Positions 2,328 to 55,178 of a DNA stretch of 64,000 bases are shown here, piece by piece (positions within the stretch are counted from its first letter, which is position 1; each line of letters opens with the position of its first letter). This stretch comes from a virus, in IMG/VR virus record IMGVR_UViG_3300045988_183134, positions 96,001 through 160,000 of that record. One strand, written 5' to 3'. Position numbers and translations under genes: made by a program. The notes under the pieces were generated by a model that was not told the DNA's origin, did not search any database, and saw nothing but the letters and a program-made list of their open reading frames with translations.

Positions 2328-2355
2328 TTGCTCAAATTTGCGAATTGCGGATAAT
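2328..2355 (+). promoter_or_regulatory. TGTGCGAA-box promoter, copy a (box variant TTTGCGAA)
   Basis: TTGCTC-aaa-TTTGCGAA-ttgcg-GATAAT-aaaaaa, directly after a terminator. Confidence 0.5.
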
Positions 2356-2418
2356 AAAAAATATAAAAATCATAAATACAGGAGAGCGAATCGCAGTGAC
2401 AGATTTACTTGGCAATAT

Positions 2419-2446
2419 GATGCGGAATGTGCGAATTGACGAATAA
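2419..2446 (+). promoter_or_regulatory. TGTGCGAA-box promoter, copy b (weak -35 and -10)
   Basis: GATGCG-gaa-TGTGCGAA-ttgac-GAATAA-agaag. It lies immediately left of the TnpB-element left-end hairpin. Confidence 0.45.
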
Positions 2447-2548
2447 AGAAGAGCGCACGCCCCGTCTATAGCCGTAAGGCTTAGGCGGGGTTAGCTCGTG
2501 TTTAAGGACAAGAATCAGGATTTTTTATTTTCCGTTCTGATAAAGGTA

Positions 2549-2576
2549 TTGCCTGGTTGTGCGAACTGGATACTGT
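2549..2576 (+). promoter_or_regulatory. TGTGCGAA-box promoter, copy c, upstream of tnpB
   Basis: TTGCCT-ggt-TGTGCGAA-ctgga-TACTGT-aaaatt. It lies inside the inferred IS boundaries. Confidence 0.45.
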
Positions 2577-2611
2577 AAAATTATAGTGAACCGCAAGGGA
2601 GGTGAGCCACT

Positions 2612-3721
2612 TTGAAAGTACATAAAGGCTATAAATTTCGGCTAGAGCCTACAGAAGAACAGAAAGTCAAAATCAATAAAACGCTCGGCTGCTGCCGTTT
2701 TGTATATAACTCTATGCTAGATAGGCGTATAAAAGCTTATCAACGGCGCGGTGAAAGTATGAGCTATATTGATACACAAAATCTGCTTCCTCAGATGAAA
2801 ACTTATCTTCCTTGGCTTGCTGAAGTAGATAGTCAAGCACTCAAATATAGCTGTCGTCAGTTAAATAATGCCTATAAAGGCTTTTTCGAAGACGGTAAAG
2901 GGTTCCCCCAATTCAAACGAAAACGGGGAGAAGAAAGCTATACAACTACAAAAGCAAAAAGCATTAAAGTTGACGAAAAGTACATTCAGCTTCCGACACT
3001 TGGGAAGATGCGTTATCGTAAGAGTCGCAACATTGAGGGACGCATCTGTAAGGCAACAATCCGTCGCTCAGCAAGCGGCAAATACTATGTAAGTATTCTT
3101 TGCGAAGTAGAAGTAATGCCGCTTCCGGTTAAAGATACCGTCATCGGTTTAGATGTTGGCATCAAATCTTTTGCTGTTGACAGCAATGGAAAAGAATATC
3201 CAAACAATAAATATCTTCAGAAAGCGGAAGCTAAACTAAAGCGTGAGCAGAAAAAGCTGTCACGCAAAAAGAAAGGTTCTGCCAACTGGGAGAAGCAACG
3301 TATCAAGGTGGCTTGCTGCCACGAAAAAGTGACCAATAAGCGAAAAGATGCCCTACACAAGTTGTCATCTACACTGGTGAAAGAAAACCAAATCATCTGT
3401 GTAGAAGACCTCAATGTAAATGGTATGGTTCGCAATCACAACCTTGCTAAAAGTATTTCCGATGTTTCTTGGGGAGAGTTCTTCCGACAACTTGATTATA
3501 AATCCAGTTGGGCAGGAAGAGCAGTTGTAAAAATACCAACCTTCTATCCAAGCAGCCAGACCTGCTCTTGCTGCGGCTACCAAAACAAAGAGGTAAAAAA
3601 CCTCAATGTTCGGCATTGGGTCTGTCCGAAATGTAACACATCACACGATAGGGATAAAAATGCAGCAGAAAACATTCTAAAGAAAGGAATGGACATGCTG
3701 GCTACGCCAGCCGCCTCATAG
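2612..3721 (+). CDS. tnpB: TnpB (IS605 OrfB-type RNA-guided RuvC nuclease), 369 aa
   Basis: TTG start after GGAGGTG. N-terminus is [13 protein letters not shown]. RuvC motifs are [24 protein letters not shown] and [10 protein letters not shown]. Zinc ribbon is SQTCSCCGY...[10 protein letters not shown]. Confidence 0.9.
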
Positions 3722-3814
3722 CCACAGACGAACAGTACGGTCAGGACGACCGAATCTTAAAGTCTGTGGAGAGCGAACCTCTATCAAGGGCTGCGGCCTG
3801 CGGTAAGCTCGCTC
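3560..3814 (+). ncRNA. candidate TnpB omega/right-end RNA scaffold
   Basis: Position overlaps the tnpB 3' end and runs to the right-end hairpin. Stems ccacagac/gtctgtgg (3722-3770) and gagcga/tcgctc (3771-3814) are visible. The 5' limit is a guess. Confidence 0.35.
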
Positions 3815-3878
3815 TATGAAGCAGAAATCCATACTGAGTAACGGGGCAACCCGTGAAAAGTTGGAAGTCCGAATCATT

Positions 3879-5384
3879 ATGCTTGCAATCAAAGCCAAAA
3901 GGTCAAATAAAACACTCTATCTATTCGCGTCCATCATCGTAACTGCCATTGCTGTCATTATGGCAGAACGGCAAGGAGTCGTTGACAGCGATTATTTCTG
4001 GCATATCACCCTGGGAAAAAGTATCTGGCAAAATAAAGCCATCCCAACTCAGGACACTTTCTCCTGGCTAAGCCCGGAACTCAATTTGCAGGAAACCGCT
4101 CATTCCTGGCTCAGCAGCCTGATTCTTTACGCGTTTTCCTGCATTTCCACAAATCCTGTCTACGGAATGCTTGCATTCATCGCAGTGACAGTCTTTGCCT
4201 ACTGTCTGTTCATTGAATATATCTGGGGCAGACAAATCAAAGACCCTTTCATGAATGTCTTGGCTTTGGCTCTTGTCACGCTGCCGCTTGACTGGGCAGG
4301 AAGACCGCAAAACATCGGCTTAACGCTCTTTGCAATCGGATTCTATCTGCTGAACAAAGTCTATGAAGAACCTGACACAAAGCTCCGCTGGCTGCTTCCT
4401 GTTGTGAGCGTTCTTTGGGCAAACCTGCACGGCGGGGCATTGCCCATTCTGCTCGCGTTCAATCTGCTGTTCTTGGTCTTGTGCTTTGCTCCTGACATCA
4501 ATGCCTTTGATATCTATAACGAAAAGGGCGACTCAAAGAAGCGGTTCCGTGCCCTGTTCCAGGTCTTTCTTTCCGATATTTTGGCCGGACTCCTGAATCC
4601 ATACGGCATCAAGCTCTATATCTATTTCTTTGTGACAAACAATGAAACGACCAAGAAATATGTTTCTGAATGGATGCCGAGCCATCTTGCCAATGAAGTT
4701 GTGTTTCTGTGCCTTGCCTTCTTGTTTCTGATTGTAGCTTACCGAATGAAGGTAAAGCTCACAGAATTTGCCCCGTATCTCTGCTGCCTGTTCATGACAG
4801 CAATGTATGTCCGAATCCGCAGCTATTGGGTTATCGTCATGACTCCCCTCATTTACCGGTTCCTCACTTCTCTTATCTCCGCACAGGAAAACCGGATGTG
4901 GAAAGCTGGCGGCAGGCCCAACAGTTCCTGGGCGGGAAACACCAAGAAATACACTATCGCTGCAGCTGCCGTGCTCGTTCTTGTATCTGCTGTCTATGCA
5001 CCTTCCATGGCCAACGACCCCGATAAGACAGGGGATTACATCACAGCTGACCTTGTCTCATACATCCAAGACCTCAACCCGCAGCGGCTCTATACCTCCT
5101 ACAATGATGGCGGGTATTGCATCTATCATGGCATCAAAAGCTTCGCGGATTCCAGAGCAGACCTATTCCCGGACGATGTCATCGAAGCAAGTGTGAATTT
5201 TGCATTCATGAGCTATTCCACCGACACTGGCATGGAAGACTGTTTGAATCAATTTGACTTTGATGCCATCCTTTTACGGCGCTCCCAAAGCGGTCCCTGC
5301 ATCGAATATCTAAACCAACTTTCTGGCTGGACACAAGGATATAAAGACGATTATTTCGTTGTTTTTGTACCTTCCGAAACCTAA
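3879..5384 (+). CDS. polytopic membrane protein with a C-terminal soluble domain; GT-C/ArnT-like glycosyltransferase candidate
   Basis: ORF 3816..5384. The first 21 codons lie on IS-flanking structured sequence, so ATG 3879 is preferred. It has about 10 or more hydrophobic segments and an early DSDYFWHITLGK loop. The family call is weak. Confidence 0.55.
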   Translation: MLAIKAKRSNKTLYLFASIIVTAIAVIMAERQGVVDSDYFWHITLGKSIWQNKAIPTQDTFSWLSPELNLQETAHSWLSSLILYAFSCISTNPVYGMLAFIAVTVFAYCLFIEYIWGRQIKDPFMNVLALALVTLPLDWAGRPQNIGLTLFAIGFYLLNKVYEEPDTKLRWLLPVVSVLWANLHGGALPILLAFNLLFLVLCFAPDINAFDIYNEKGDSKKRFRALFQVFLSDILAGLLNPYGIKLYIYFFVTNNETTKKYVSEWMPSHLANEVVFLCLAFLFLIVAYRMKVKLTEFAPYLCCLFMTAMYVRIRSYWVIVMTPLIYRFLTSLISAQENRMWKAGGRPNSSWAGNTKKYTIAAAAVLVLVSAVYAPSMANDPDKTGDYITADLVSYIQDLNPQRLYTSYNDGGYCIYHGIKSFADSRADLFPDDVIEASVNFAFMSYSTDTGMEDCLNQFDFDAILLRRSQSGPCIEYLNQLSGWTQGYKDDYFVVFVPSET

Positions 5385-5579: not shown

Positions 5580-5607
5580 TAGCGAAGGTGTGCGAATTGC
5601 AGACAAT
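5580..5607 (+). promoter_or_regulatory. TGTGCGAA-box promoter, copy d, upstream of rep
   Basis: TAGCGA-agg-TGTGCGAA-ttgca-GACAAT-gaaag, 55 nt upstream of the rep ATG. Confidence 0.5.
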
Positions 5608-5661: not shown

Positions 5662-7812
5662 ATGCTAAATAACAGCTATACAAAAACGAATACCATCTTC
5701 GGACAGGCGCTTGGATGCACTGCCCTTGATGACGCATTTGTAAAGCTGCTGAGTGATGTAAATGCCGATGGCGTGACTCAGTTCCTGATTCGGACAAATG
5801 GCGAAGAGAAAATGAAGACCGTTGCCCAAATCAATTCTGAGTCTCTGGAAGCGGGTGTTCGTGAGCGCATCTTTGATAAAGTCAGCCCGAAATATGGGAC
5901 CCCGACTTATTGGGATACCTCTACCAACATCTACTTCTCCATCAATACGTTCCATCCTCAGAAATCTCTGCGCGGAAAAGGTATCCGTCGTAAGGCGGAT
6001 GTCGAAAAGCTGCGCGCTCTGTTCTTTGACATTGATTGCCACGGCGAAAACGCACCAGCTGACATCAGCGACCGCATCGGTGAACTTGTACTGGATGCCG
6101 TGAATCATCATGAGATTCCGGACTGTGCAGTTTCTAACAGCGGCCGTGGTGTTGGCTTGTTTGTGTTTCTTGAACCCTGCAACCCAAACAATCTCTCTTA
6201 CGGCTTGGCCTACAGCGGCGTACATAGAGCAATTTCTCTCAAGCTGAATGAGTTGATTGAGAAGGCCCAGTTCACGGCAAATGTTGAGCTGGATAAGGCG
6301 GTTCATGAAACCAACCGCGTTGCTCGTCTGCCTGGTACTTACAACACCAAGGCAAAACGCTGCTGCCATTGTATTCGGGTCCCTGAAGGAAAGCCCTTCA
6401 ACCTGCTGAAGCTCGCCGACCAGTATGAAGTCCCTTATCGGTTTGCTGATGAGAAAGTTGCTCCGTCTGACGCGAATTTCAACAAGACTGAGGACGAAAT
6501 CCTTGACTGGGCTAAAAAGCGCTTCGCGGCAATGTGCATGCGCTATCCGCATCTTCTTGAAGTTCTGAACAATTACAAGAAGAAGGAAGAACGGAAAGCA
6601 AACTTCGTCTGCCGCTTTGAGCTGGCGCTTCGTTACCTTCAGGCAAATCCGTGTGGTGAAGGAAACCGCCACAACACCCTCTTGGCTGTACTTTCCACCT
6701 GCTATGACCGTGGCGGTCATCCGGATATGGATAAGGCACAGCTCATCAACCGCACTTTTTCTCAGCCACTTTCTGACAAGGAAGTTGCGCATCTCGTTTC
6801 CACCTGCAAATACCCTTGCAAGAACTCGACGATTGAAGCACTCTCCGGCATTCCCGCAAGTGCTCTCAAGAATCCCAAAGCTAAGGCGGAAGGGAAGAAG
6901 AACGAAAGCGAATCTAAGCCAAAGCGTTACGAAAAAGGCGAAATTCCGCCTCCGATTGCAAGCTCCAAGGCTGACCGTTACATGCTCGGTGTTCTCATCA
7001 ACCACGGCATCATTCCCGACCTCCGCATCCGGAACCATCGTCAGAAGTACGAGGCTCAGGAACGCCGGAAACAGCGCATGGTCATCTATGACCGTATCCC
7101 GGAACTCTATGCTTCCGGAATGTCCGTTCGTGCCATTGCAAAGGAACTGAAAATCTCGGTTCCCACTGTATATGAGCAGGCTAAAGTGCGTGGTCTTGAT
7201 ATCGTGGAGAAGGAACAGCAGGCATTCCGCGTCAAGAACCTGACAGCTCAGCGACTCGTTGAGATGGGATATCAGAAGCAGAAAGTTGCTGAACTGATGG
7301 GCGTTAACCGGAACACGGTGTTCAACGCTCTGAACCGGACTTTTGATTCTGTGTCTGAAGAAGACCTTATGCTCATTGACAAGGCGGTTAATAAGCTCAT
7401 TGGTCGTGTCGAGGTTATCGTGGAGACTCCCGAACCACAGACGGCTGACGAGCTGGAAACGGCAAAGCCGCAGGAAGCTAATGAAACTACTGTGACTGCT
7501 GAATCCGCTGAAACTGCTGAGACGGTTGCGACCGCCAAGGCTGCGGACAGTACCGAGACCGTCACTACCGAGAAGGAGTGTTCTTCTAAGGATGACAACA
7601 AGCCAGACGACAATGTACCTTTTGCTCCATTCAGTGATGCGTACAATCAGCTGTGCTTTGAACCTCAATCCCACAAAGGTTGGCACTCCGTCAAGGATGC
7701 GTTGAACAACTACGCGACCAGCTGCTGCTCTGCGATAAGTCAGCTCTGGGATGGCGTTGGCAAAGTTCAAAGGCACTTTGACTACGGTCGAGCGCAGCAA
7801 GCCGCAACCTGA
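5662..7812 (+). CDS. replication initiator, primase-polymerase-like core with a PriCT-1-like motif and C-terminal HTH modules
   Basis: Motifs LFFDIDCHGENA, RVARLPGTYNTKAKR and GEGNRHNTLLAVLSTCYDRG. Two HTH-like stretches are SVRAIAKELKISVPTVYEQAK and KVAELMGVNRNTVFNAL. It has an acidic AETAET-rich tail, and an iteron region follows. Confidence 0.8.
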   Translation: MLNNSYTKTNTIFGQALGCTALDDAFVKLLSDVNADGVTQFLIRTNGEEKMKTVAQINSESLEAGVRERIFDKVSPKYGTPTYWDTSTNIYFSINTFHPQKSLRGKGIRRKADVEKLRALFFDIDCHGENAPADISDRIGELVLDAVNHHEIPDCAVSNSGRGVGLFVFLEPCNPNNLSYGLAYSGVHRAISLKLNELIEKAQFTANVELDKAVHETNRVARLPGTYNTKAKRCCHCIRVPEGKPFNLLKLADQYEVPYRFADEKVAPSDANFNKTEDEILDWAKKRFAAMCMRYPHLLEVLNNYKKKEERKANFVCRFELALRYLQANPCGEGNRHNTLLAVLSTCYDRGGHPDMDKAQLINRTFSQPLSDKEVAHLVSTCKYPCKNSTIEALSGIPASALKNPKAKAEGKKNESESKPKRYEKGEIPPPIASSKADRYMLGVLINHGIIPDLRIRNHRQKYEAQERRKQRMVIYDRIPELYASGMSVRAIAKELKISVPTVYEQAKVRGLDIVEKEQQAFRVKNLTAQRLVEMGYQKQKVAELMGVNRNTVFNALNRTFDSVSEEDLMLIDKAVNKLIGRVEVIVETPEPQTADELETAKPQEANETTVTAESAETAETVATAKAADSTETVTTEKECSSKDDNKPDDNVPFAPFSDAYNQLCFEPQSHKGWHSVKDALNNYATSCCSAISQLWDGVGKVQRHFDYGRAQQAAT

Positions 7813-41855: not shown

Positions 41856-41868
41856 TGTGCGATGATTG

Positions 41869-43358: not shown

Positions 43359-43444
43359 GGCAAATATCTCCTTTGTATTGAATCTACGTACAATTCTACG
43401 CAAATCGCAATAAAAAGGAACACGCTATGACATAAACTACCATA

Positions 43445-43453
43445 AATATACCA
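43445..43453 (-). promoter_or_regulatory. extended -10 promoter (AAATATATGGTATATT class)
   Basis: The reverse complement reads aaatataTGGTATATT, about 90 nt upstream of 43358<-. Confidence 0.5.
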
Positions 43454-43489
43454 TATATTTTACTTTTATAAAAGCCTGATTTCCTGTAT

Positions 43490-43531
43490 CTTGTTTACAA
43501 ATTGACAGTTTCATCGTATAATGTAAACAAG
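43490..43531 (+). promoter_or_regulatory. promoter embedded in a 10-bp perfect inverted repeat (autoregulation operator candidate)
   Basis: CTTGTTTACA...TGTAAACAAG flanks TTTACA-17 nt-TATAAT, just upstream of the XRE-type gene. Confidence 0.55.
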
Positions 43532-43546
43532 AAGGGGAGGACTGTC

Positions 43547-44566: not shown

Positions 44567-44647
44567 TAAAATTCATGGACAACACTTATAAATTGAAGTA
44601 TACTTTTGTTAAGGCAAATGCTCTTGTAAAGTGAGGTGTGATTTCGC

Positions 44648-45739
44648 GTGCGATTTTTGTTGATGAATAAAGATACCAAGTGGCTCTTGTTTGACTGTTA
44701 TGAGGACGAGTTTGGCTTTACGGCTGGCAAAGAAATCGAATGGTATACTTCGTTCAGACCGATTCAATACAACAATATTGGTGACTTCCTTGATGCACGC
44801 AAAGCGCCTAAGCATAGAAAGCACATCGCTGAGCTTCTGAAAAAGTACGGTTGTGAATCCACTGAAAATTTTTTGCGATTAACGCATGCACTGTCACTCA
44901 ATGATACTTTCTGGGTAAAAGAGCCAGAAAGCCCTTTGACATGGAACGAAGTTTCCTTATACAGAAACGAATTTGATGAACTGGTTTCTAACGCGGCCTT
45001 TGATGGAATTATATCCTCTACCACTCTTTCTTCGACATCCCCTGAATTCGGGACAGATGGTGCTTATGCAAAGTGCTGGCAACGTGAAAACGGCACGGTC
45101 TATCTGTATAAAAGCGGCAGCGACACTTATGAAATCGAACCCTTGTCCGAATTTCTTGCGTCACAGGTAGCTGATATACTTTGCCATAACCACGTCGAGT
45201 ATGGCCTTGCCTTTTATCATAGACGACTGGCATCAAAGTGCAAGCTGTTTACCAGTGAACAATTCGGTTTGGCTAAAATGTCGGCACTTCCAGTTACTAA
45301 TCGTAAAAATCCCGCTGCCTTCCTAAAATTTGCTGAGCAATATGGTAGTGAAGACTTAATGCGCAGGATGTTCATTTTGGATGCTCTTATTCTCAACATC
45401 GACCGTCATTTAGGTAATGTCGGATTTCTTTTCGATAATGATACAATGCAAATTACCGAAATGGCTCCCATTTACGACAACAATCGCAGCCTACTGTTTC
45501 AATTCGATACAGAAACCATCGAAAACAACCCGGAATGGTGCATATCAAAGTGTGAGCCAAGAATAGGTGAAGATTTCATTAAGACCTCACAAGCAGTTCT
45601 TACCGATGAATTGAGAGTGGAATTAAAAAACATGAATGGCTTTGAATTTCATGCACCGAAAGATATTGGCGTTCCTATGGATAGGCTGGTGGCGTTGAGC
45701 CGAATCTTAAATATACAACTGAACAAAATCTTACAATAA
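44648..45739 (+). CDS. HipA-like Ser/Thr kinase
   Basis: Motifs are LDALILNIDRHLGNVGFLF and MAPIYDNNRSL. Start is GTG 44648 (after GAGGTG) or ATG 44663. Confidence 0.7.
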   Translation: MRFLLMNKDTKWLLFDCYEDEFGFTAGKEIEWYTSFRPIQYNNIGDFLDARKAPKHRKHIAELLKKYGCESTENFLRLTHALSLNDTFWVKEPESPLTWNEVSLYRNEFDELVSNAAFDGIISSTTLSSTSPEFGTDGAYAKCWQRENGTVYLYKSGSDTYEIEPLSEFLASQVADILCHNHVEYGLAFYHRRLASKCKLFTSEQFGLAKMSALPVTNRKNPAAFLKFAEQYGSEDLMRRMFILDALILNIDRHLGNVGFLFDNDTMQITEMAPIYDNNRSLLFQFDTETIENNPEWCISKCEPRIGEDFIKTSQAVLTDELRVELKNMNGFEFHAPKDIGVPMDRLVALSRILNIQLNKILQ

Positions 45740-45741
45740 CA

Positions 45742-45778
45742 AAGGGGAGTCGCGATTCACGACTCCCCTTCTTGTTTT
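45742..45778 (+). terminator. intrinsic terminator
   Basis: aaggggagtcg-cgattca-cgactcccctt followed by cttgtttt. Confidence 0.7.
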
Positions 45779-45936
45779 GTCGAAGTGAGTGTATAAAAAA
45801 TCAGCTTGAACGCTGAAATTGTGTTGGCAATTGGCCAAAAGCACTAAATTGATAGCATAAAATCAAAATTTGCGATAAAATCAATTGAATTTCCTTAATT
45901 TGCAGCGTATACTATTAGAAGGAAGGGAGTAGTATT

Positions 45937-47235
45937 ATGCTGATTGAGTTTACTGTAAAAAATTATCGGTCTTTTCGAGACGAAGCAGCTCTCTCGATGG
46001 AAGCAACGGGAGCAAGCACGCTGAAAAGTGTGCTCATTCCATATGGCGGAATGCGGATTCTGCCGGGTGCTGCCATTTACGGGAAGAACGGTGGCGGTAA
46101 GAGCAATGTTATCCGAGCTTTTTGGCTTTCGGTTCAATTCATCAGAAACGCACAAAAGACACAGCATGAGAAAGCAGCTATCCCCGTTGTTCCGTTTGCA
46201 TTGAATGACTACTCGGCATCTGAGCCGACAGAGTTTTCGTTTGTATATACCTTGGATGGAATCAGGTATTGGTATGCCTTTTCTGCCACAAAAGAAAAGG
46301 TATATGCTGAGTCGTTGTATCATGCACCGAAAGGGCAGAAGGCACTGGTTTTTGCTAGAGAAGGGCAGGAATTCACCTTTACCGAAGAGAAGGCTCGTAG
46401 AAATCTGATTAGTCAGGTTGTTGCCGAAAATCAACTGTTCTTTTCTGTAGCATGTACCATGAACGACGTTGCCTGCTCCAAAGCTATGACTTGGTTCCGG
46501 GAGAAAATCTATTTTTCAAGAGACTATTCGGATATTCCCCGGCAGCTGCTTGAATATTCGAACGACTCTAATATGCTGAAAGCGATTTCCGATTATGCGA
46601 AGGCTGCAGATGTTGGTATCGAAGATATGAAATTCGAAATCAATAGTAAAGAAATTAACGAAGAAGCTGATTTGCCTGCAAACATTCCCGAAGAAGTTAA
46701 AGCTGCACTTGTACAGTTCATGCATGTGCTTTCGGAAACCTCTAACAATTCGGAAACACACCTCAAGATGGGGCAGGTTAACGCAACATCCATGCATCAA
46801 GGCCAAAACAAGGACGGAACAAGCCATATGTTTTCGATGGAGCTGGCAGACGAGTCTGATGGCACAAGAAAACTGATGGCCATTGCTCCTGCAATTGAGT
46901 CCGTGCTGTCAAAGGGCGGCCTTTTGCTGGTAGATGAAATCGAAAAAGAACTGCATCCTGCTCTGGTAGAGCTTATTGTTGCCAAATTCCAGAGCAAAAA
47001 GACAAACCCGAATGAAGCACAAATTGTCTTTACGACACACAACACCGACCTGTTGAGTATGGAGCTGCTGCGTAAAGACCAACTCTACTTTGTTGATAAG
47101 AACAAAGATGATGGTGCTTCAGAACTCTACAGCATCAGCGATTTTTCCACTCGCACGACCGAAAATGTTCGCAAGGGCTATCTCCTCGGAAAATATGGCG
47201 CGGCTCCCAATGTCGAAATTGAGGAGGTTGAATAA
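45937..47235 (+). CDS. AAA_15/21-type (ABC/SMC-like) ATPase of the kind found in abortive-infection/defence pairs
   Basis: Motifs are MLIEFTVKNYRSFRDE, Walker A GKNGGGKSNV and Walker B LLLVDEIEKELHP, plus TTHN. Confidence 0.7.
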   Translation: MLIEFTVKNYRSFRDEAALSMEATGASTLKSVLIPYGGMRILPGAAIYGKNGGGKSNVIRAFWLSVQFIRNAQKTQHEKAAIPVVPFALNDYSASEPTEFSFVYTLDGIRYWYAFSATKEKVYAESLYHAPKGQKALVFAREGQEFTFTEEKARRNLISQVVAENQLFFSVACTMNDVACSKAMTWFREKIYFSRDYSDIPRQLLEYSNDSNMLKAISDYAKAADVGIEDMKFEINSKEINEEADLPANIPEEVKAALVQFMHVLSETSNNSETHLKMGQVNATSMHQGQNKDGTSHMFSMELADESDGTRKLMAIAPAIESVLSKGGLLLVDEIEKELHPALVELIVAKFQSKKTNPNEAQIVFTTHNTDLLSMELLRKDQLYFVDKNKDDGASELYSISDFSTRTTENVRKGYLLGKYGAAPNVEIEEVE

Positions 47236-47764
47236 TGGCTTGCAAGCTGAAGAAATCCAAGGTCAGTCTAATGAGTGTGACGATTCGTCCGGGCTTTGCG
47301 ACGATTCCGTTTGCCTAAAATGGTTTTGGAATGGGCTTTTCTGCATTTTCTTCAGAGAGAGCCCACAAATAGACAGCTTTTTTTGCAGGATATCGAGCGT
47401 GACGATGTCCCCAAAGTCATCACAAAGTTTCTGCAGGGATTCATTTGATTCAGCCTGAAGAGCACTGCGCAATGTTTGGAGCTGCCCACTGAATACGGCG
47501 TACAAAAACAATGGTTCTCGCAACTTTGGAAAATCGCCGCAACAGGAAGCAAGCCTTTTTATGCTAAGGGTGCTTTCTCCCGAAAGCTCTTTCACAAAAC
47601 CCGCGCCAAGGAAGCCCACTGCGTGAGCGGTGGGAGGAATTGGTGCATGAGTTTTTAAGAAAGACGAATGTGTACAATCTGTAAATAAGAAAGCTACTTG
47701 ATTTCTTTTTGCATCAAAAAATATTATAATACCGATATAATCAATCAAAGAAAGGAGGGCTATT

Positions 47765-49504
47765 ATGGCTTTCGGAAACAAGAACAGTACGCCGTCGTTT
47801 GCGTTAACTCTTCCTATGAAAGTAACCGAACAGGATGAAATTTTTCTTTCCAAAAAGTTTCGCGTTGGATGTACGATTTACAACCAAATGGTTAAGAAAA
47901 CCACAAAAATGTGGCATCAGCTGCGCAAGACGCGAGAATACAAAAATCTTATAAAAGCCATAAAAGCCGCTCCTGTCAACAGTGATGAACGGAAAGCACT
48001 GTTGATACAGCGTTCCAATTTGATTAAGCAAGCAAGCTTTTCAGAGGGAGCGTTCCATAAGCTGGTCGTGCCTTACCAGAAAGCGTACAACGTAAATTGC
48101 GATGTCGCTCAAAAAGTGGCATCCGCTGTCTGGAAAGCGTGGGATGACTTCTTTTATGGAAAGGGAAAAACCGTACACTATAAAAAGTTGAACGATTTTG
48201 TAACCCTTTCCGGGAAGAAAAATAACAGCGGTATATTCTTTCGTCCAGCAAATCATACGGTGAGTTCTTTGGAATCCGCTAAGCGAAAGGCGAAAAACTC
48301 TATCGAGAAAAGATACTTCGACGCATATAGAAAGCCAGATGCCAAAGAAGGTGAAGAGGTAGTTCTTCCCGATGAGGTGAAAGCGCAAATGGACAAAGAG
48401 GTCACCGACGCTACGGCGAAAATCAAACCGTGTATCGGAGAAGGCAATCTGCGCATCATTTACGAAAAGCACGAATTCCTTGTCAAATTGCGAAATCCCG
48501 ATATACAAACGGGATGGTATCAACAGGAAGCACTTAAATGCGGCGTCAAATATTGCCGGATTGTTCGTTCATGGGTCGGCACCAAGTGGAAGTATTACGC
48601 TCAACTTGTTCTGGAAGGTTATCCGCCCATCAAATGCGACAGCAACGGTGTTGTAAAGCACCATGTAAAGCAGGGGCGTGTCGGCATAGATATCGGCACA
48701 CAAACCATTGCTTTTTGCGGCAAAGATGTTTGCGACCTTCGTGTGCTTGCACCGTCTGCTATAGCGGAAACTCGCAATGGTCTTACAAAGGAAATCGCTC
48801 GCGTTATGCGGCAAATGGACCGTTCGCGCCGTGCGATGAATCCGCGGTATTATAACGAAAACGGAACCATTAAACGGCTGAAACGCAAGAACGGACATAA
48901 GCAAATTCGTCATTGGAACTACAGCAAGAACTATTATCGGCTGCTGTATAAACTGCGGGACTTGAACCGCAAACTTGCCGCTGTACGCAAGACGGAGCAT
49001 TATATTCTCGCTAATGAAATGCTGACATACGGCAACGAATTCGTAGTTGAAGATATGAACTACAAAGCTTTGCAAAAGCGCAGCAAGAAGACGAAAATCA
49101 ATCCCAAAACCGGTAGAGCGCATACCAAAAAGCGGTTCGGTAAAACTATCGGACGCTGCGCTCCTGCTTTGTTTATCACCATTTTGGGGCAAAAAGCAAG
49201 TCGATACGGCGGCAGCGTTATCAAGGTCAGCACCTTTGAAACAAAGGCTTCGCAGTTTGACCATACCGATGATAGCTACACCAAGAAGAAATTGTCCCAG
49301 CGTTTTGCTAAACTTTCAGACGGAACCGTTGTTCAGAGGGATTTGTATTCTGCATTCCTTTTATTGCACCTTAGAAAGAACCTTCAATCCTATAACAAGA
49401 AAACCATTAAGAAAGACTTCCCGCAGTTTAAGAAGCTGCACAACGAAACAAAAGAACGCTTGCAAAACAACCACGAGTGGTTGCCTGCAAGCGTAGGATT
49501 CTAA
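47765..49504 (+). CDS. large TnpB-like RuvC nuclease (579 aa) lacking zinc-finger cysteines
   Basis: RBS AAAGGAGGG. RuvC-like motifs are GRVGIDIGTQTIAF, FVVEDMNYKAL and VVQRDLYSAFLL. The usual CxxC...CxxC segment reads STFETKASQFDHTDDSYTKKKLSQRFAKLSDGTV, with no Cys. Confidence 0.7.
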   Translation: MAFGNKNSTPSFALTLPMKVTEQDEIFLSKKFRVGCTIYNQMVKKTTKMWHQLRKTREYKNLIKAIKAAPVNSDERKALLIQRSNLIKQASFSEGAFHKLVVPYQKAYNVNCDVAQKVASAVWKAWDDFFYGKGKTVHYKKLNDFVTLSGKKNNSGIFFRPANHTVSSLESAKRKAKNSIEKRYFDAYRKPDAKEGEEVVLPDEVKAQMDKEVTDATAKIKPCIGEGNLRIIYEKHEFLVKLRNPDIQTGWYQQEALKCGVKYCRIVRSWVGTKWKYYAQLVLEGYPPIKCDSNGVVKHHVKQGRVGIDIGTQTIAFCGKDVCDLRVLAPSAIAETRNGLTKEIARVMRQMDRSRRAMNPRYYNENGTIKRLKRKNGHKQIRHWNYSKNYYRLLYKLRDLNRKLAAVRKTEHYILANEMLTYGNEFVVEDMNYKALQKRSKKTKINPKTGRAHTKKRFGKTIGRCAPALFITILGQKASRYGGSVIKVSTFETKASQFDHTDDSYTKKKLSQRFAKLSDGTVVQRDLYSAFLLLHLRKNLQSYNKKTIKKDFPQFKKLHNETKERLQNNHEWLPASVGF

Positions 49505-49775
49505 AACACTTAAATTTTTTAAAGGGTTTCGACGTAGCCCTATTGATTGCCTTGATGTACTGCTTTCAGCAGCACTTGATAGGTGAAACCCTAATTTAGG
49601 GGATATCTACACTTTTTATGCTGGCTTTTCGGGCATTTTGCCCTGCCTTTAAGCTTCGCTTTGGGTAGTAAGTACATTGGTCTATCGAAAGATAGTGTAT
49701 CCGGCGGTTTTTGCTGTTGGAAAACCCTGTAACTGCATTGCGTCAGCATAGAATCCCTCTCCGTAAGGGGTGGGA
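49505..49775 (+). ncRNA. candidate omega/right-end RNA of the TnpB-like element
   Basis: Structured non-coding DNA lies between the stop codon and the right-end hairpin (gggtttc...gaaaccc, gcagcagcacttgat...). Confidence 0.3.
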
Positions 49776-49815
49776 GTACGTCAAATACTGGCGAAGAAAA
49801 CCTAAAAATGTCAGA

Positions 49816-51195
49816 TTACTTCTCATGGCTTTTCCTGATTCCAAAAACGTCATTTCCGTCCAGATAAATGAAAGGCTTTTCATGCTCGTTGAATCCGTTG
49901 ATGGCAACGAAACCGAGTTGCTTAACTTTGAGCTCTTTGATAGCCTCTACTTGCTGGGCCTCGTGATGAATCTCATCCAGAGTCATGGGCTGGGCATAGT
50001 ACTTTGCTTCGAAAATCTCATAGCCATCAGCAAACTCTAAAGCAACATCGAATTCACCGTTCGTGCGGTGGACTGGGTCATCGTAATAGTAGCTGCCAAT
50101 GTTGCGTACACCTTTCAACTTTCCAGAACGGACCTGCAAGCTGAAATAGTCACGGCAGATGCCTTCAAAACGTCGGGAGATGAAGTCTGTCAGAACGGGA
50201 CTGATGTACTCGTCATAGAATGCCTTGGCTCCTAGCACTTGGAGTGCGCTACTGTTCTTATATACAAAGGTGAAGTAGAATCTCAGAAGATTGTCGTTGA
50301 TTTCAAAAGCAGACTTTTTATTGTCGTTCAGCCTGTTAATGGGATTATTTCGGGAAAGAATCTCTAAGTCAAGCAGGGGCTTGATTTGCTTTGCGAGGTT
50401 GCCGGTCTTCCTCGCATCCAGTTTATCTTCGATTTCGGTATAGCGCTTCTTCCCATTTCCAATGACAGAAAAGATACGTTCTGCATTGATGCTTACCGAG
50501 TAGTCCGAAAGCAGCAGCTGGCTGGCATACAGATACACTGCGCTCGTAGGATTGAGAACGGTGTTGATAATATTTTCTCGGAGAGTGGCTTCAGGGTTTA
50601 GTGCTTGATTAACAAATGGGGAACCGCCAAAAACGGCATAATGGCCAACTTTGTCGTAGGGTGTTTTGTCAGGATAGAACTTGGCAGCATCCAGATAACT
50701 CAACTCATTTAACTTGATTGTGACAGCAAACCGACCATATAGAGCGTTCTTCTCTTGCAACGCATCCTTCATAATACCGATGTGAGAACCAGAAAGGATA
50801 AGTTCGATGTTAGAGAGTCGGTTGTCGATAATGCTCTGGAAGATGGAATCAACCGCAGCGGAGTCCGTCATGGATTTGAGATAGGGGTACTCATCGATGA
50901 CGACAACAATCTTTTGGGGCAGCGCATTGAGATAAGTGAATACATCCTGCAGCGTGCTAAAGCTCAGAGGCACAGGCAGAACCTTGGCACGGACAAGCTC
51001 CTGCACAAAGCCATTGATATTGTCCTGCATTATGCTTTTCAAGCACTCAAAGTACACCTTCTGATACTGGCAGCTCTCAAGTGCTTTTCGAATGAGAGTA
51101 GTCTTTCCAACGCGGCGCTTGCCGTAAACCATAATGGCCTTTCCGATATAATCTTCCTGCAAAAGAGCCAGCTCTTTCTCGCGGCCAATAAACAT
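49816..51195 (-). CDS. ATPase of the 'archaeal ATPase'/DUF234 type
   Basis: N-terminus is MFIGREKELALLQE, and Walker A is VYGKRRVGKTTLIRK. Length is 459 aa. Confidence 0.65.
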   Translation of the reverse strand: MFIGREKELALLQEDYIGKAIMVYGKRRVGKTTLIRKALESCQYQKVYFECLKSIMQDNINGFVQELVRAKVLPVPLSFSTLQDVFTYLNALPQKIVVVIDEYPYLKSMTDSAAVDSIFQSIIDNRLSNIELILSGSHIGIMKDALQEKNALYGRFAVTIKLNELSYLDAAKFYPDKTPYDKVGHYAVFGGSPFVNQALNPEATLRENIINTVLNPTSAVYLYASQLLLSDYSVSINAERIFSVIGNGKKRYTEIEDKLDARKTGNLAKQIKPLLDLEILSRNNPINRLNDNKKSAFEINDNLLRFYFTFVYKNSSALQVLGAKAFYDEYISPVLTDFISRRFEGICRDYFSLQVRSGKLKGVRNIGSYYYDDPVHRTNGEFDVALEFADGYEIFEAKYYAQPMTLDEIHHEAQQVEAIKELKVKQLGFVAINGFNEHEKPFIYLDGNDVFGIRKSHEK

Positions 51196-51558
51196 AGCAC
51201 ACCTCCAATAACACTGAAGCGAATTTCACTGAATTTATTTTCAATGTTATTTTACCATACGGACGCGCGAAAATCAAATGTTAATCCAGCTGAAACGAGC
51301 AGAGAAAAAGAGCAGGCTCATCTTTGACAATGAACCTGCTCTGAAAAGTATCAATAGCCTACCGAGCGACGCCAACATATGACGCTTGCCTCGAATATAG
51401 CACTTCGAAAGGACTTACTTTTGGTATAATTCTAGTGTATGATTCGTGCAAAGCAAAGGCAATACTGTTTTTGAAAAAAAGAAGCTCGAATTTCTTTGCT
51501 AAAATTATGTCTTTATGTTGTTTATACATTACGGTTGGTTGAAAACTCTACAAATATA

Positions 51559-51567
51559 TGGTACTAT
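51559..51567 (+). promoter_or_regulatory. extended -10 promoter (AAATATATGGTACTAT)
   Basis: caaatataTGGTACTAT, 33 nt upstream of ATG 51600. Confidence 0.5.
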
Positions 51568-51599
51568 ATTTATAGCAAATATAGACAGGATGAATAACA

Positions 51600-52061
51600 A
51601 TGAATGCACATTATCCAAGTGATTATCCAGATGGGTTTGAGGAAAAACTAATTGCTGCTGGTGCTAAAACGCAAACAATCACTCCCGTATACAGAATACT
51701 ATATGATGGTAAGCTGAACGCCTTCAACTTTGAGTCAACGTATATTAACTATAGGAGAAGACACAAAACACTTACTAAAAGGAAGTTACAGCACTTGGGG
51801 ACATATTCGACTTCCTGCTTTGCGGAACTCGATGACGTTGCATATACAATTCAATATTCAATGAAAAATCCGCCATTTGCGAAAATCTGTAAAGGCGTAA
51901 TTACACAAACTTCAGGTTACAGTCAAAGGACGGTGGATAGAGAGCCAGAAACAGAAAGCTCACATGTTGATTGGTGGATTTATTCTGATATTGACGTTAA
52001 TTCTGAAGTTCTCACTAATTTTTCTATCTGTTCTTTCGAGAAAGAAGGCGAGAAAGTATGA
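51600..52061 (+). CDS. 153-aa protein, first gene of the SecB-like operon (toxin candidate)
   Basis: ORF from the track. Its stop overlaps the next start (ATGA). No family recognised. Confidence 0.65.
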   Translation: MNAHYPSDYPDGFEEKLIAAGAKTQTITPVYRILYDGKLNAFNFESTYINYRRRHKTLTKRKLQHLGTYSTSCFAELDDVAYTIQYSMKNPPFAKICKGVITQTSGYSQRTVDREPETESSHVDWWIYSDIDVNSEVLTNFSICSFEKEGEKV

Positions 52062-52720
52062 GTTACAAAGGAGAACTGTTGTTCGAAGGGACAAAGTTCA
52101 AGTCTTATTTTAAGCAAGACTTAATAATTGAACAGACTTTTCTGGAATATGATGAGATTCCATTGCTGTGTGCGTGCCTGGACGAGGAGGGAAATCGCTA
52201 CTTTTGTAATTGTACCGAATTTCGCACATATGAAAAATGGGCTATATATCCGGTAAGTATTCTTCAACTTTTGAAGATGGTAAAAAATGAAGTTACTCCG
52301 GCTGATACTTTTGATGCTTCCACAGTTGTATATGTCTTTACAATCGATTGGGAAAACGAGAGTGAAAAGTTCGAAAAAAAGACAGTATCTGAGTTAACGA
52401 AATATGACAGATTGCCAGACAATATATATTTGACTTCGCATCCAAATCGACTCGAAAAATATGCAGATAGCCTTCAAACTGTTTACAAAGCTCAAACTGC
52501 GTTGTGCTGCAGTAAGCGTTACGTTGCCTGCTGTGTCCGAAGCGTTGACGTGACCAATGAACTCCTTAGTAGCCTTATATTGTCAAAGGCGAACTATCCG
52601 GTACGATTGAACGTAGAGATTAGTATTGGCAAAAACCATAGAGATATTCAACTGCAAGAAACAAACAACATCGACATTATACACATGACAAAATCGGATT
52701 ATGCATGTGTTAGCGTATGA
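52058..52720 (+). CDS. 220-aa protein, long paralog of 41406..41777 with a ~95-aa C-terminal extension (antitoxin candidate)
   Basis: Residues ~25-135 align with the 123-aa paralog (RYFCNCTEFRTY, KYDRLPDNIY, SHPNRLEKY). It has ATGA overlaps on both sides. Confidence 0.7.
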   Translation: MSYKGELLFEGTKFKSYFKQDLIIEQTFLEYDEIPLLCACLDEEGNRYFCNCTEFRTYEKWAIYPVSILQLLKMVKNEVTPADTFDASTVVYVFTIDWENESEKFEKKTVSELTKYDRLPDNIYLTSHPNRLEKYADSLQTVYKAQTALCCSKRYVACCVRSVDVTNELLSSLILSKANYPVRLNVEISIGKNHRDIQLQETNNIDIIHMTKSDYACVSV

Positions 52721-53154
52721 GGACGCGTAATTATATGGAACTCACCAAATTGGCTTTAATAAAAACTGTGATGCCATGTGTTAAATTGGAAATCGCAGAG
52801 CAAGCTTTACAAAATGAAAGCAATCCACGTGAACAACTTCATCAAAAAATCAATATACAGGGTGGCGTTGAAGACGAAGAGGAACCGTCAACCGTAAAAG
52901 TTAGAATTAAAATTTCTGTCTCTACAGACTCTGGGAATGTTGCTTTTGAAGCGTGCAGAGAAAGCACATTCCAAAATGAGTCTGGCGAAAAATGGAAAAA
53001 TCGCGAAGATGCTATGCAAGATGTCAAAAACACTGCTATCCCATTGGCATATGAAGATATGCAGCGATTTGTTGAAGAATTGTCCAAAAGTGCCGGGATT
53101 TCTCCGTTTCCAATCCCGGGCTATGATACTATCCAAAAGGATGAGAGTGAGTAA
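52717..53154 (+). CDS. SecB-like chaperone
   Basis: STVKVRIKISVSTDSGNVAFEACRESTF and NTAIPLAYEDMQRFVEELSKSAGISPFPIPGYD align by eye with E. coli SecB [29 protein letters not shown] and [31 protein letters not shown]. Confidence 0.55.
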   Translation: MRTRNYMELTKLALIKTVMPCVKLEIAEQALQNESNPREQLHQKINIQGGVEDEEEPSTVKVRIKISVSTDSGNVAFEACRESTFQNESGEKWKNREDAMQDVKNTAIPLAYEDMQRFVEELSKSAGISPFPIPGYDTIQKDESE

Positions 53155-53430
53155 AACGGGCTTTGACTGATGTTCACGCCTCGTAAGCTCAGAACGTGTA
53201 AAGCAATTCAAGAAAGTTATATCTCAAATATCGCAATAGCGTATAGGCTATACCAGCCTGTGCGCTTTCTTTTTGCCATATTTCGTCATAATCAATAAAA
53301 GCATTTATTGCTTTTTGTTAATCATGTAATTGACTTTGCAAAACAGTGTCGGTAAAATAAAGGTATTCGATAGACCGCATTAACAATCTGTGAACTTTTT
53401 GGGGTTCGTATTGTGCGATTGCCACATAAA

Positions 53431-53439
53431 TGGTATTAT
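53431..53439 (+). promoter_or_regulatory. extended -10 promoter TGGTATTAT (a degenerate TGTGCGAT box lies at 53412)
   Basis: tTGTGCGATtgccacataaaTGGTATTAT, about 140 nt upstream of 53576. Confidence 0.4.
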
Positions 53440-53575
53440 GCAATTGTACAGAAGGATAGGCGGCAAAAGAGTCCACAGCATCGTCGATGACGAAATCCAA
53501 AGCTGCGTAGGGCTGACGTCGAACCTATTAGTTGAATGTGGCCCCCGGCACTAGACGCCGGGATGTAAAGGAGAA

Positions 53576-54772
53576 TTGAATATGAAACGTAAGACTATCA
53601 TTTTAGCAGTGGTAGCAGCCGCTGCGATGGCGCTCAGCCTGGTAGGGTGCGGCGTGAAAATCACGAACATCGCGGTTCCGGAGTCTGCGATGGTGGAGAA
53701 GGGTGAAAGTATTACCCTGCCTGTTGTGTACGGCACCGACGATGCTCCGGCCGTAACTCCTGAGACTGCTGCAACCGGTGAAAGTGCTGCAACGGATGAG
53801 AAAGTAGCCAAGGCTGCCGAAAAGCTCACCATTGAGTGGACCTCCTCCGATGAGAGCGTTGCGACGGTCGATGCCACTGGCATGGTGGTTGCTGTCTCTG
53901 CAGGTGAAGCTGACATCACTGCAAGCGTCACGGATTCTGAGATGAGTGCTGTCTGCAAGGTTACGGTTAAAGTGGCCGCGAAAGACATCACCGTTCCCGA
54001 CAACCTTGACGTCAAGCTCAACGATGGAAACGAAACCACTGTCGAGACAACGGTAAGCCCGGCTGATGCCACCGATGTGAAGGTAAGTTACGCTTCTACT
54101 GATGAGGCAGTGGCCACCGTCGATAAAGACGGCAGGGTTCAGGTCTTGCAGCCTGGTGAATGCGACATCACCACGACCCTCATGCAGGATGGCGAAAAGG
54201 TCACCGAGAAGACGACTCATGTGAAAGCATTCTATGAGGTTGAAAGCATCACGCTCGATTCCAACGAAGGCAAGTTGACGGTCGGTAACTCTCACACCAT
54301 TAAGGCGATGGTTGCTCCCGAAGAGGTTGCCGCCGAAACTACCATCGAGTGGTCGTCCAGCAACGAGAAGGTCGCTACAGTCGATGAGAACGGTAAAGTC
54401 ACTGCAATTGCGGCCGGTGAGGCAACCATCACCGCAACTGCCGGTGAGGAAAGTGCCAACTACGAAGTGACGGTTGAACAGCCGAAGAAGGTCACGACCA
54501 GCAACAAGACTTATAAAAGCAGCAGTTCCAGCAACAGTTCTGCTGCTGTGACGCCTTCCAACCCGGCACCTGTTGCCCCGGCTCCCGCACAGCCTGACCC
54601 GGCACTGGCACAGCCTGACCCTCAGCCGGAACAGCCCGCGCAAGACTCTCAACCCAGCGGGGGCACTGATAACTCTGGCGGTAATAGTGAGGATGACTGG
54701 TGGCATGGTCCTGTTCTTTCTGCGCCGACTGATAACGGTTGCCCTCCTGAGGATGTTGGCATTCTTTGCTGA
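53576..54772 (+). CDS. lipoprotein with three or four Big_2-like Ig repeats and a Pro-rich tail
   Basis: Lipobox is ALSLVG|CGV. Repeats are ESVATVDATGMVVAVSAGEADITA, EAVATVDKDGRVQVLQPGECDIT and EKVATVDENGKVTAIAAGEATITA. The tail is PAPVAPAPAQPDPALAQPDPQPEQP. Confidence 0.8.
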   Translation: MNMKRKTIILAVVAAAAMALSLVGCGVKITNIAVPESAMVEKGESITLPVVYGTDDAPAVTPETAATGESAATDEKVAKAAEKLTIEWTSSDESVATVDATGMVVAVSAGEADITASVTDSEMSAVCKVTVKVAAKDITVPDNLDVKLNDGNETTVETTVSPADATDVKVSYASTDEAVATVDKDGRVQVLQPGECDITTTLMQDGEKVTEKTTHVKAFYEVESITLDSNEGKLTVGNSHTIKAMVAPEEVAAETTIEWSSSNEKVATVDENGKVTAIAAGEATITATAGEESANYEVTVEQPKKVTTSNKTYKSSSSSNSSAAVTPSNPAPVAPAPAQPDPALAQPDPQPEQPAQDSQPSGGTDNSGGNSEDDWWHGPVLSAPTDNGCPPEDVGILC

Positions 54773-54868
54773 TGGCTTTTTCGCCGACTGATAACGGTTG
54801 TACTGACGAAGAAAGAGCAGCTGCATTGTGTTAAATAAGTTGCTTGAGTAAAATTATTCTATCCAATG

Positions 54869-54902
54869 AAAAGGAGACTCCGTTTTGGGGTCTCCTCTTT
54901 TA
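54869..54902. terminator. bidirectional terminator
   Basis: aaaa-ggagac-tccgttttgg-gtctcc-tctttt. Confidence 0.65.
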
Positions 54903-54974
54903 TATTCTTCCGCCCCAAAAAGCCCGTTTCAAAAGAAAAGCTAATGCCTAAGCTTTCAAAAACTTCTTGCAAAT

Positions 54975-54983
54975 AATATACCA
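54975..54983 (-). promoter_or_regulatory. extended -10 promoter (AAATATATGGTATATT class) with no ORF downstream
   Basis: The reverse complement reads caaatataTGGTATATT. It points leftwards toward the terminator at 54869-54902, about 70-100 nt away. Confidence 0.4.
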
Positions 54984-55150
54984 TATATTTGACTGCTAAT
55001 TTTCACAAGTTTTCCTCCCCACGTTGTCGTAATTGCACAAAGACCCATATGCAAAGAAGAAGCCGTCCCACAAAGGCTCGGCTTCTTTTTTCTATTTGTG
55101 TCGTTGAAAAGTCATTTTTTACTTTCCGCGAAATTTGTTTTTCTGGCTTA

Positions 55151-55178
55151 TTGCCAAGGCTTGCGAATCGCATATGAT
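55151..55178 (+). promoter_or_regulatory. TGTGCGAA-box promoter, copy n (box CTTGCGAA)
   Basis: TTGCCA-agg-CTTGCGAA-tcgca-TATGAT-agaaaa, followed by TGTACGG. It lies 105 nt upstream of ATG 55283. Confidence 0.5.

Follow-up and report, generated by a model that had tools for sequence, protein, structure and literature searches.

Several plasmids and phages are known to place one common sequence at promoters throughout the element, so that distant genes form a single regulon. These include the C1 operators of phage P1, the kor systems of IncP plasmids, R388, the SigN promoters of pBS32, the stoperators of mycobacteriophage L5, MotA boxes and the sites of CII. Here we describe a promoter sequence that recurs through a 64,000-nucleotide (nt) stretch of metagenomic DNA (the window; positions 96,001-160,000 of IMG/VR record IMGVR_UViG_3300045988_183134). 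Its 28 base pairs (bp) share the register TTGC-N7-TGCGAA-N5-kAyAAT, in which the invariant core is TGCGA(A), called here the box. The 28-mer is best read as an element-specific promoter class of the sigma-A type, the 'house' promoter of Hodor-like megaplasmids of gut Bacillota.

The P1 C1 network is similar in that many promoters across a large extrachromosomal element carry one short asymmetric sequence, by which they form a single regulon. However, the C1 operators are repressor sites whose placement relative to the hexamers is variable, whereas the register here is invariant and the sequences are unrelated. IncP (RK2, KorA/KorB) and IncW (R388) plasmids also have backbone promoters across the plasmid with operators read by plasmid-encoded proteins. 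In those systems, which belong to Proteobacteria, the operators are palindromes or repeats whose distance from the hexamers varies, in contrast to one asymmetric box in a 16-bp spacer on a Bacillota megaplasmid. The plasmid pBS32 of B. subtilis is a large Firmicute plasmid with its own distributed promoter class. SigN, however, is a sigma factor with its own hexamers, while here the hexamers are sigma-A-like and no sigma factor was found in the window and 196 related loci.

Lambda CII promoters (TTGC-N6-TTGC) and the MotA-box middle promoters of T4 combine a sigma-70-type -10 with a factor-specific element that lies at a fixed distance, within the -35 region or beside it, as is seen here. The TTGC-N6-kTGC of the new promoter resembles the CII box, but its second repeat is about 5 bp nearer the -10 than in lambda PRE, and unlike in CII and MotA sites the box extends to TGCGAA. 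Pfam scans of the sampled proteins turned up no CII- or MotA-like protein. Phage Mu Mor and C (PF08765) are relevant because the candidate proteins described below match the C-terminal helix-turn-helix (HTH) of the Mor model, although the sites of Mor and C are dyads that overlie or precede the -35 and the box lies inside the spacer.

The Hodor megaplasmids, first reported in 2026, are widespread in human guts; most of their genes are of unknown function, and their hosts are unknown (PMC12934698). They are conjugative elements of 211-389 kb with a guanine-cytosine (GC) content of 47.1% (G1) or 44.6% (G2) (Yuan et al., bioRxiv 2026, PMC12934698), and they are mostly found in huge-phage and viral catalogues. 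They encode several sortases and giant secreted surface proteins (>7300 and about 2600 amino acids), TnpB, Phage_lysozyme2, type I-C CRISPR-Cas, a ParM-like protein, and a helicase with an HD-family relaxase (PMC12934698). Rep_3, ParA/ParB, VirB4/VirD4 and a SecYEG-trigger factor module are also present (PMC12934698). The preprint is silent on promoters, sigma factors and regulators (PMC12934698); the promoter class and a leader RNA are added here.

Distribution of the promoter in the window

The pattern TTGCC-N4-TGTGCGAA-N5-KATAAT, with up to three mismatches allowed, has ten matches in the window, all on the + strand, where 0.01 are expected. They start at 2328, 2549, 5580, 14256, 17332, 19124, 22687, 33881, 38368 and 55151. 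A weight matrix made from related elements (cut-off 8 bits) finds 11 sites on the + strand and none on the - strand, or one per 5.8 kb. Every one of these lies in non-coding DNA, which makes up only 14.7% of the window. The copies are as follows.

Copy a, 2328-2355, + strand: TTGCTCAAATTTGCGAATTGCGGATAAT, with the box variant TTTGCGAA; 2 mismatches, 37.7 bits; 6 bp past the terminator 2293-2322.
Isolated exact TGTGCGAA (earlier site b), 2428-2435, + strand: no -35 or -10, below 8 bits; within the predicted copy-a transcript.
Copy c, 2549-2576, + strand: 21.2 bits; weak -10 (TACTGT); a TnpB-only insertion sequence (2595-3874) lies 18 bp downstream.
Copy d, 5580-5607, + strand: degenerate -35 (TAGC); followed after 55 nt by the Rep-like primase/polymerase-HTH gene 5662-7812.
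Copy e, 14256-14283, + strand: 1 mismatch, 42.1 bits; 8 bp past the terminator 14226-14248, which follows the topoisomerase gene.
Weak additional copy, 16034-16061, + strand: TTGCCAGTTCTTGCGATGCTCGTATCAT; 9.6 bits; precedes a gene that begins at 16109; read by a promoter scan as TTGCCA-16-TATCAT.
Copy f, 17332-17359, + strand: 45.1 bits, the best match in the window; the terminator 17261-17291 is 41 bp upstream.
Copy g, 19124-19151, + strand: 39.9 bits.
Copy h, 22687-22714, + strand: no mismatch to the pattern; 56 bp past the terminator 22606-22631; heads the surface-protein gene cluster.
Copy i, 33881-33908, + strand: box TGTGCGAG; 28.7 bits; a leader of about 300 nt precedes the gene 34209-35795.
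Copy j, 38368-38395, + strand: upstream of the sortase gene 38425/38440-39324, in an intergenic region shared with a divergent - strand gene.
Copy k, 55151-55178, + strand: box CTTGCGAA; 22.5 bits; upstream of the giant surface-protein open reading frame (ORF), with ATG at 55283 and still open at 64000.

An initial annotation, made from the letters of the window and its ORFs, had proposed 11 intergenic sites with one 28-bp layout, all on the + strand. Strand and intergenic position are borne out by the matrix, and the layout holds for ten of the sites; the eleventh, 2419-2446, contains the 8-mer without the hexamers. The copy at 16034 was missing from that list. The 8-mer had been called invariant, which is incorrect given the one-base variants at 2328, 33881 and 55151, and the three degenerate look-alikes proposed at 7849, 30716 and 53412 each score below 8 bits. 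The exact 8-mer occurs 11 times in the window (3.45 expected), ten of them on the + strand. Three occurrences have nothing to do with promoters, two in coding DNA (27505 and 44550) and one on the - strand (52221), and outside the promoters the 8-mer is present at chance density.

The sites head + strand units, as had been proposed: they usually stand just past terminators, and a ribosome-binding site (RBS) and ATG follow. Terminators abut copies a and e and precede f and h at the distances listed above, but the one assigned to the neighbourhood of 55151 ends about 255 bp before it. The 'sortase-like' label given to the gene after 14256 has no Pfam support. The 28-mer is promoter-like because of its hexamers, its constant 16-bp spacer, its position past terminators and the RBS and ATG downstream. 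The sigma-A appearance noted at the outset is borne out for the -10, which kAyAAT matches (A2 100%, A5 96%, T6 100%). In 50 of 50 leader-type copies, the leader RNA described below starts 5-6 nt past the -10, a distance expected of a transcription start.

Copy d is kept in the relatives L095 and L122 while the sequence upstream diverges. The copy-a promoter of L095 stands directly upstream of the homologue of gene 3816-5384, and 2356-3870 of the window therefore looks like later insertions. One of the mobile elements here is a TnpB-only element of the IS605 type (2595-3874, 1,280 bp), with boundaries set by independent copies in L016, L068 and L123. Motif promoters precede TnpB copies elsewhere too, by 25-257 nt. 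The 67-amino-acid ORF 17053-17256, just ahead of promoter f, is identical to the C-terminus of a protein of about 340 amino acids in relatives (cluster 42) and is apparently a gene remnant.

Anatomy of the promoter and conservation of the box

The sites of the window and its relatives were grouped into 74 independent promoter families with unrelated downstream sequence, 49 of which do not match the retrieval pattern. Because the sites were chosen with a matrix threshold, the percentages that follow run somewhat high. TTG at the -35 is 97-100% conserved across the promoter families, and 96-100% among those 49. Its fourth position is C, not A, in 86-91%, and positions 5-6 are free. Among the 49 families outside the retrieval pattern, conservation is 69% for A7, 98-100% for T12-G13-C14-G15-A16, 84% for A17, 86% for G20 and 73% for C21. 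In their -10, A24 and T28 are 100% and A27 is 96% conserved, and the remaining positions of the 28-mer are free. It is the core, not the whole 8-mer, that is constant. The box is followed by five semi-conserved bp (yyGCr), the -10 and an A-rich start region; it lies at about -23 to -18, with the conserved GC at -16/-15.

The spacing is as rigid as the sequence. TTGC-N7-TGCGAA-N5-kAnnAT occurs at 98 unique sites, all with a 16-bp spacer, and lengthening or shortening either gap by one base leaves 0-1 sites. Within the 28-mer, TTGC (positions 1-4) and GTGC (11-14) form a direct repeat, TTGC-N6-kTGC, and counting the segment beyond the box there are three TTGC-like repeats (TTGCnnA, kTGCGAA and TTGCA, at positions 1, 11 and 18). 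TGC-N5-GCA is also a partial dyad, although an imperfect one with an extra base in one half-site.

The known promoter elements compared here do not account for the box. An extended -10 or '-16 region' (TRTGn) is ruled out by the missing TG directly before the -10; the positions there are GCr, and the TGTG of the box stops 9 bp short of the hexamer. Spacer activation of the MerR type, with a spacer of 19-20 bp and a dyad operator, is ruled out by the 16-bp spacer of all 98 sites. The box is also unlike the known consensus sequences of the Spo0A 0A box, the LexA Cheo box, cre, the Rex site, the sigma-54 -24/-12 elements and the sigma-H and extracytoplasmic function (ECF) -35/-10 elements.

Promoters of a UvrD-like helicase of about 920 amino acids, from orthologues with 51-100% amino acid identity, stand in at least five unrelated upstream contexts and keep the box in all of them. 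Even the most diverged orthologues, at 51% identity, retain TTGCACATyyGTGCGAA...kAyAAT while the N5 and the leader differ, and a second gene family likewise keeps the box while the flanks diverge. Because it is kept in orthologous promoters with diverged flanks and N positions, the TGCGAA box is judged from these comparisons to be under selection. The alternative is that the box has no function and that the copies are alike through recent duplication or homogenisation of a promoter cassette. Some copies do have long flanks in common; those at 17332 and 19124, for instance, share the leader. Yet TGCGA is fixed across the 74 families with unrelated flanks, the N positions and flanks are free, and the box persists between orthologues at about 50% protein identity. 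If gene conversion were the cause, continuous tracts would be alike, not alternating positions. The conservation is position-specific and thus contradicts this explanation, which we regard as very improbable.

Specificity to the element family

A scan of IMG/VR with TTGC-N5-TGTGCGAA-N5-KATNAT returned at least 113 stretches. Among the matches listed, nearly all are in human-gut catalogue contigs of 26-389 kb, often several per contig. The permuted box GATGCGTA in the same frame has no match. By comparison, a slightly stricter pattern of the full 28-bp architecture matched one genome each of 185,579 species (596 Gb) only eight times, about the number expected by chance. Two of these eight are on a 224-kb contig of a 'Clostridiales' metagenome-assembled genome (MAG) that is homologous to the giant gene of the window, and the other contigs of this MAG have no match to the stricter pattern. 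The architecture is thus specific to the element family, being common in relatives and at chance level in the species genomes. A full-text literature search for the 8-mer returned primer noise only. Neither PLSDB, searched with window 1-20 kb and with the promoter plus leader, nor the GenBank phages gave a nucleotide match.

In these elements a copy of the motif is found about once in 3-6 kb. One locus retrieved by protein similarity has six sites in 20 kb, all co-oriented with the genes, and 62 further loci retrieved in the same way have 114 sites on the operon strand versus 2 on the opposite strand. Loci retrieved by the motif itself, with crude ORF calls, have 178 sites on the same strand versus 57 opposite, a noisy statistic that is not relied on. 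Within the window, the - strand genes and a low-GC island (about 38.4-53.5 kb) have no motif except the copy at the left edge of the island (38368). The - strand gene 37006-38262, divergent from copy j, has a box-less promoter, TTGACC-17-TGnTATAAT at 38276-38248. This is a predicted near-consensus sigma-A promoter with an extended -10, and it provides a useful internal contrast to copy j.

These distributions bear on the idea that there is no dedicated factor. The box would then be either an intrinsic promoter element, contacted in the spacer by host RNA polymerase, or a site at which the plasmid exploits a host transcription factor. The output of sigma-70 promoters can be modulated by their spacer sequence, and the genome scan covered the full 28-bp architecture, so that a host factor binding the box alone elsewhere would be compatible with it. 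However, a favoured architecture should appear in host genomes, and only about eight matches were found in 596 Gb, with none on the other contigs of the MAG that contains the 224-kb relative. The dissimilarity of the box to the host motifs considered above points the same way, and we consider this explanation quite unlikely.

Recognition of the box

The reading we favour, with a probability of roughly 0.45, is that the box is contacted by RNA polymerase and an element-encoded specificity factor in one complex. One complex is proposed to read box and hexamers because the register never varies, and because TTGC deviates from TTGA in combination with a uniformly short spacer. Recognition of TTG and the -10 would fall to the sigma-A RNA polymerase of the host. 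The specificity factor, held in fixed geometry on the polymerase as an activator or appropriator or as a sigma-like subunit, would simultaneously read the C of TTGC, the TGCGAA and the GC at -16/-15. The replication, topoisomerase, helicase, sortase and surface-protein units of the plasmid would then be switched together as one regulon, while ordinary promoters would serve the acquired islands and the - strand genes. The leader with a conditional terminator would add a second layer in a subset of units.

The initial annotation envisaged a master regulator or a dedicated sigma-like factor. The second of these, generalised to a sigma-70-family protein or a separate RNA polymerase encoded in the unsampled part of the element, would be consistent with the fixed spacing and the long contiguous recognition sequence, which are typical of promoters for alternative sigma factors and phage-type polymerases. 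The motif is also element-specific, and the SigN regulon of the B. subtilis plasmid pBS32 is a precedent. However, a jackhmmer search with the C-terminal region of E. coli RpoD against six-frame ORFs of the window and the 196 loci, an incomplete sample of the elements, gave nothing at E values up to 10. Pfam scans of all window ORFs and about 230 proteins of relatives, from the same incomplete sample, found no sigma factor, and neither Sigma70_r2 nor any RNA_pol family. None is among the core genes in the Hodor preprint (PMC12934698). The hexamers, moreover, resemble those of sigma-A, and a dedicated sigma factor or polymerase is improbable.

A different possibility is a global repressor. The sigma-A promoters would be constitutively competent, and TGCGAA(yy)GCA would be the operator of an element-encoded repressor that, sitting in the spacer, keeps most of a 200-390 kb plasmid silent until a signal releases it. 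Repressors classically bind between the two hexamers, and here the box overlaps the extended -10 position, where steric block is expected. The near-consensus -10, the partial dyad TGC-N5-GCA (with G20 at 86% and C21 at 73%) and the isolated box at 2428 outside any promoter also favour a repressor, as do the precedents of P1 C1 operators, IncP KorA and mycobacteriophage L5 gp71. Against it, steric block needs no absolute rigidity of both gaps, and the dispersed operators of known systems stand at variable places with respect to the hexamers. Promoters tuned to need help are suggested by the conserved C of TTGC and the uniform, sub-optimal 16-bp spacer, and the dyad is imperfect, with its additional base in one half. 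We regard a repressor as the main rival, quite possible but less probable than the favoured reading.

No obvious regulator was reported in the window, and this remains so, the only related item being the tandem HTH tail of the Rep-like protein (5662-7812, amino acids 456-560). The same HTH module recurs in relatives, which encode small proteins composed of tandem HTH modules only. These modules match the C-terminal part of Mor, HTH_23, HTH_28 and HTH_7, and weakly sigma-70 region 4.

Poly-HTH operon, L135:9299-12362, operon strand, from Pfam and the weight matrix; also in L075, L192 and 60 further IMG/VR loci.

In L135 a 36.8-bit copy of the motif is followed by genes for 3xHTH, 2-3xHTH and 6xHTH proteins and a classical AAA ATPase, 5 kb downstream of the UvrD-like helicase and 5.5 kb upstream of an HD-domain protein. 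Across the family, 62 IMG/VR contigs encode the 6xHTH protein, with 93-100% identity except for two at 73-74%, one of which is a close relative of the window. A 193-amino-acid member has homologues only in such metagenome contigs, all with at least 62% identity, and the poly-HTH family seems restricted to these megaplasmids. The AlphaFold model of this 193-amino-acid protein has three helical HTH units (predicted local distance difference test score, pLDDT, 80); its local structure matches are HTH domains of LuxR type and of sigma, Mu C, Tc3 and ParB proteins. Full-length membership of the Mor/C family was ruled out: the PF08765 match (E = 4e-14) is confined to profile positions 54-101 of 107, and the proteins lack the N-terminal dimerisation part and have 2-6 copies of the HTH each.

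The poly-HTH/AAA operon, itself behind a house promoter, is the best candidate for the factor, although its link to the motif is circumstantial and unproven. Three HTH modules facing three TTGC-like repeats would be an attractive fit, as pure inference. Several observations weigh against a specificity factor on the polymerase, or against this candidate for it. Sigma-A might suffice to fire these promoters, given their near-consensus -10 and their TTG, and the box occupies the repressor position noted above. The candidate is tied to the box by co-occurrence and self-location only, in an element family sampled in part only. The 193-amino-acid gene is truncated in some contigs, and a Foldseek comparison of its model with the PDB gave generic local HTH matches and no significant global match. 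The operon, placed between a helicase and an HD-domain gene, could equally serve an origin of transfer (oriT) or replication. A search for iterons or repeats beside it found nothing convincing.

A leader RNA downstream of many house promoters

Leader RNA, 17366-17459, + strand: TGTACGATAGATA...CGTACAATTCA...terminator; predicted to run from copy f, ahead of gene 17542-18084.
Leader RNA, second copy, 19158-19254, + strand: runs from copy g, ahead of a gene with its ATG near 19283.
Leader RNA, partial, from 55185, + strand: behind copy k; starts TGTACG and has a long stem with CGCTGTACA.

There are 54 distinct copies of the leader, two of them in the window and others in loci such as L014, L017, L074 and L087. 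The 5' part consists of UGUACG-AUAGAUAmC, a variable hairpin, and CGUACA-AUUCAyAAUU, and its stem is almost invariant across copies. In the 3' part, a yyGC segment could base-pair with the 5' half of an intrinsic terminator, and the RBS and ATG follow. RNAalifold assigns 12 pairs to the terminator, seven of them with compensatory changes. A search of Rfam at gathering and permissive thresholds found no family for the leader. The layout looks like that of a riboswitch or a protein-dependent attenuator, and the leader RNA, fed by many house promoters, is a previously undescribed family.

The promoter and the leader may be combined in a single scheme, which we consider doubtful at present. The megaplasmids would run a private two-tier programme, in which tandem sigma-region-4/Mor-like HTH proteins, encoded together with the AAA ATPase in a conserved backbone operon, read the three repeats and hold or appropriate the host polymerase in fixed geometry, and the leader RNA (UGUACGAUAGAUA...terminator) gates elongation in a subset of units. 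If true, this would be a new promoter-recognition module, and more than a new operator.

The element and its gene content

Most window ORFs remain without annotation in Pfam and PHROGs. Those recognised encode TnpB, the Rep-like primase/polymerase with two C-terminal HTH modules, a type IA topoisomerase, BspA/Big_2 surface proteins, a sortase and a PcfJ-like protein. The giant ORF, of more than 2924 amino acids, has a signal peptide and a YDG domain and runs off the window end; relatives have ORFs of 1639-2956 amino acids. The exact Rep-like protein is found on 21 metagenome contigs up to 231 kb, including gut contigs of 231 kb and 120 kb. Relatives in IMG/VR reach 389,222 bp, and the loci average 47.4% GC. 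Pfam matches in the element family further include Phage_lysozyme2, Cas7/Csd1, MreB-like_C, the UvrD-like helicase and an HD_4 protein.

We assign the window to a Hodor-like conjugative megaplasmid of the human gut on the basis of its sequence. The features in common are the gut source, size and GC content, the sortase and giant surface protein, and the set of TnpB, lysozyme, Cas, ParM-like and helicase plus HD proteins. Rep_3, ParAB, VirB4/VirD4 and SecYEG were not seen in the sampled pieces, which cover only part of the elements, and local GC did not assign the loci to Hodor G1 or G2.

Several other features of the window were observed. The segment 27616-29295 has a HEARO RNA (RF02033, 95.5 bits) directly upstream of a 456-amino-acid RRXRR/HNH ORF, an IscB-omega-RNA (OMEGA) unit; RRXRR copies are also found in the relatives L009 and L132. 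The low-GC island (42-45%, about 38400-53500) encodes an Xre-HTH with a HipA-like protein, AAA_21, ATPase_2/DUF234 and HicB-like proteins. A second TnpB-like ORF (47765-49504) lies within it, and its genes are defence- or toxin-antitoxin-like. The island is probably acquired cargo because it has no house promoter past the left-edge copy at 38368.

Two segments, 23747-25204 and 29387-30655, encode five paralogous secreted proteins of about 145-240 amino acids with signal peptides and the motif TVPE..TL...G.GTYTG...W.GTATF.C. This family flanks a large BspA/Big_2 protein, has 23 members in nine loci and has no Pfam match; its members may be pilin-like proteins or sortase substrates. Very long - strand ORFs (5665-7800, 31255-33339, 34158-36680 and 57044-61384) mirror real + strand genes over nearly their whole length. 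With no family matches and an odd composition, these ORFs are likely not genes but artefacts that codon usage leaves on the antisense strand.

Conclusions

Two features are new with respect to the systems described so far. The first is a single asymmetric box locked with invariant geometry in a sigma-A-like spacer, in a newly described and very large gut element family. The second is the coupling of the house promoter to a new leader RNA. A box locked in this way is unusual and might point to a novel means by which host RNA polymerase is redirected. The 28-mer provides a sequence tag for further relatives and a bait for isolating the controlling factor, and the promoters and leader RNA could serve as regulated parts for genetically intractable gut Bacillota. 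A family-specific promoter also gives a map of transcription units, by which native units are told from acquired islands. The presence of the motif at most transcription units of giant gut plasmids, and in almost no bacterial genome, suggests that these plasmids control their own transcription.

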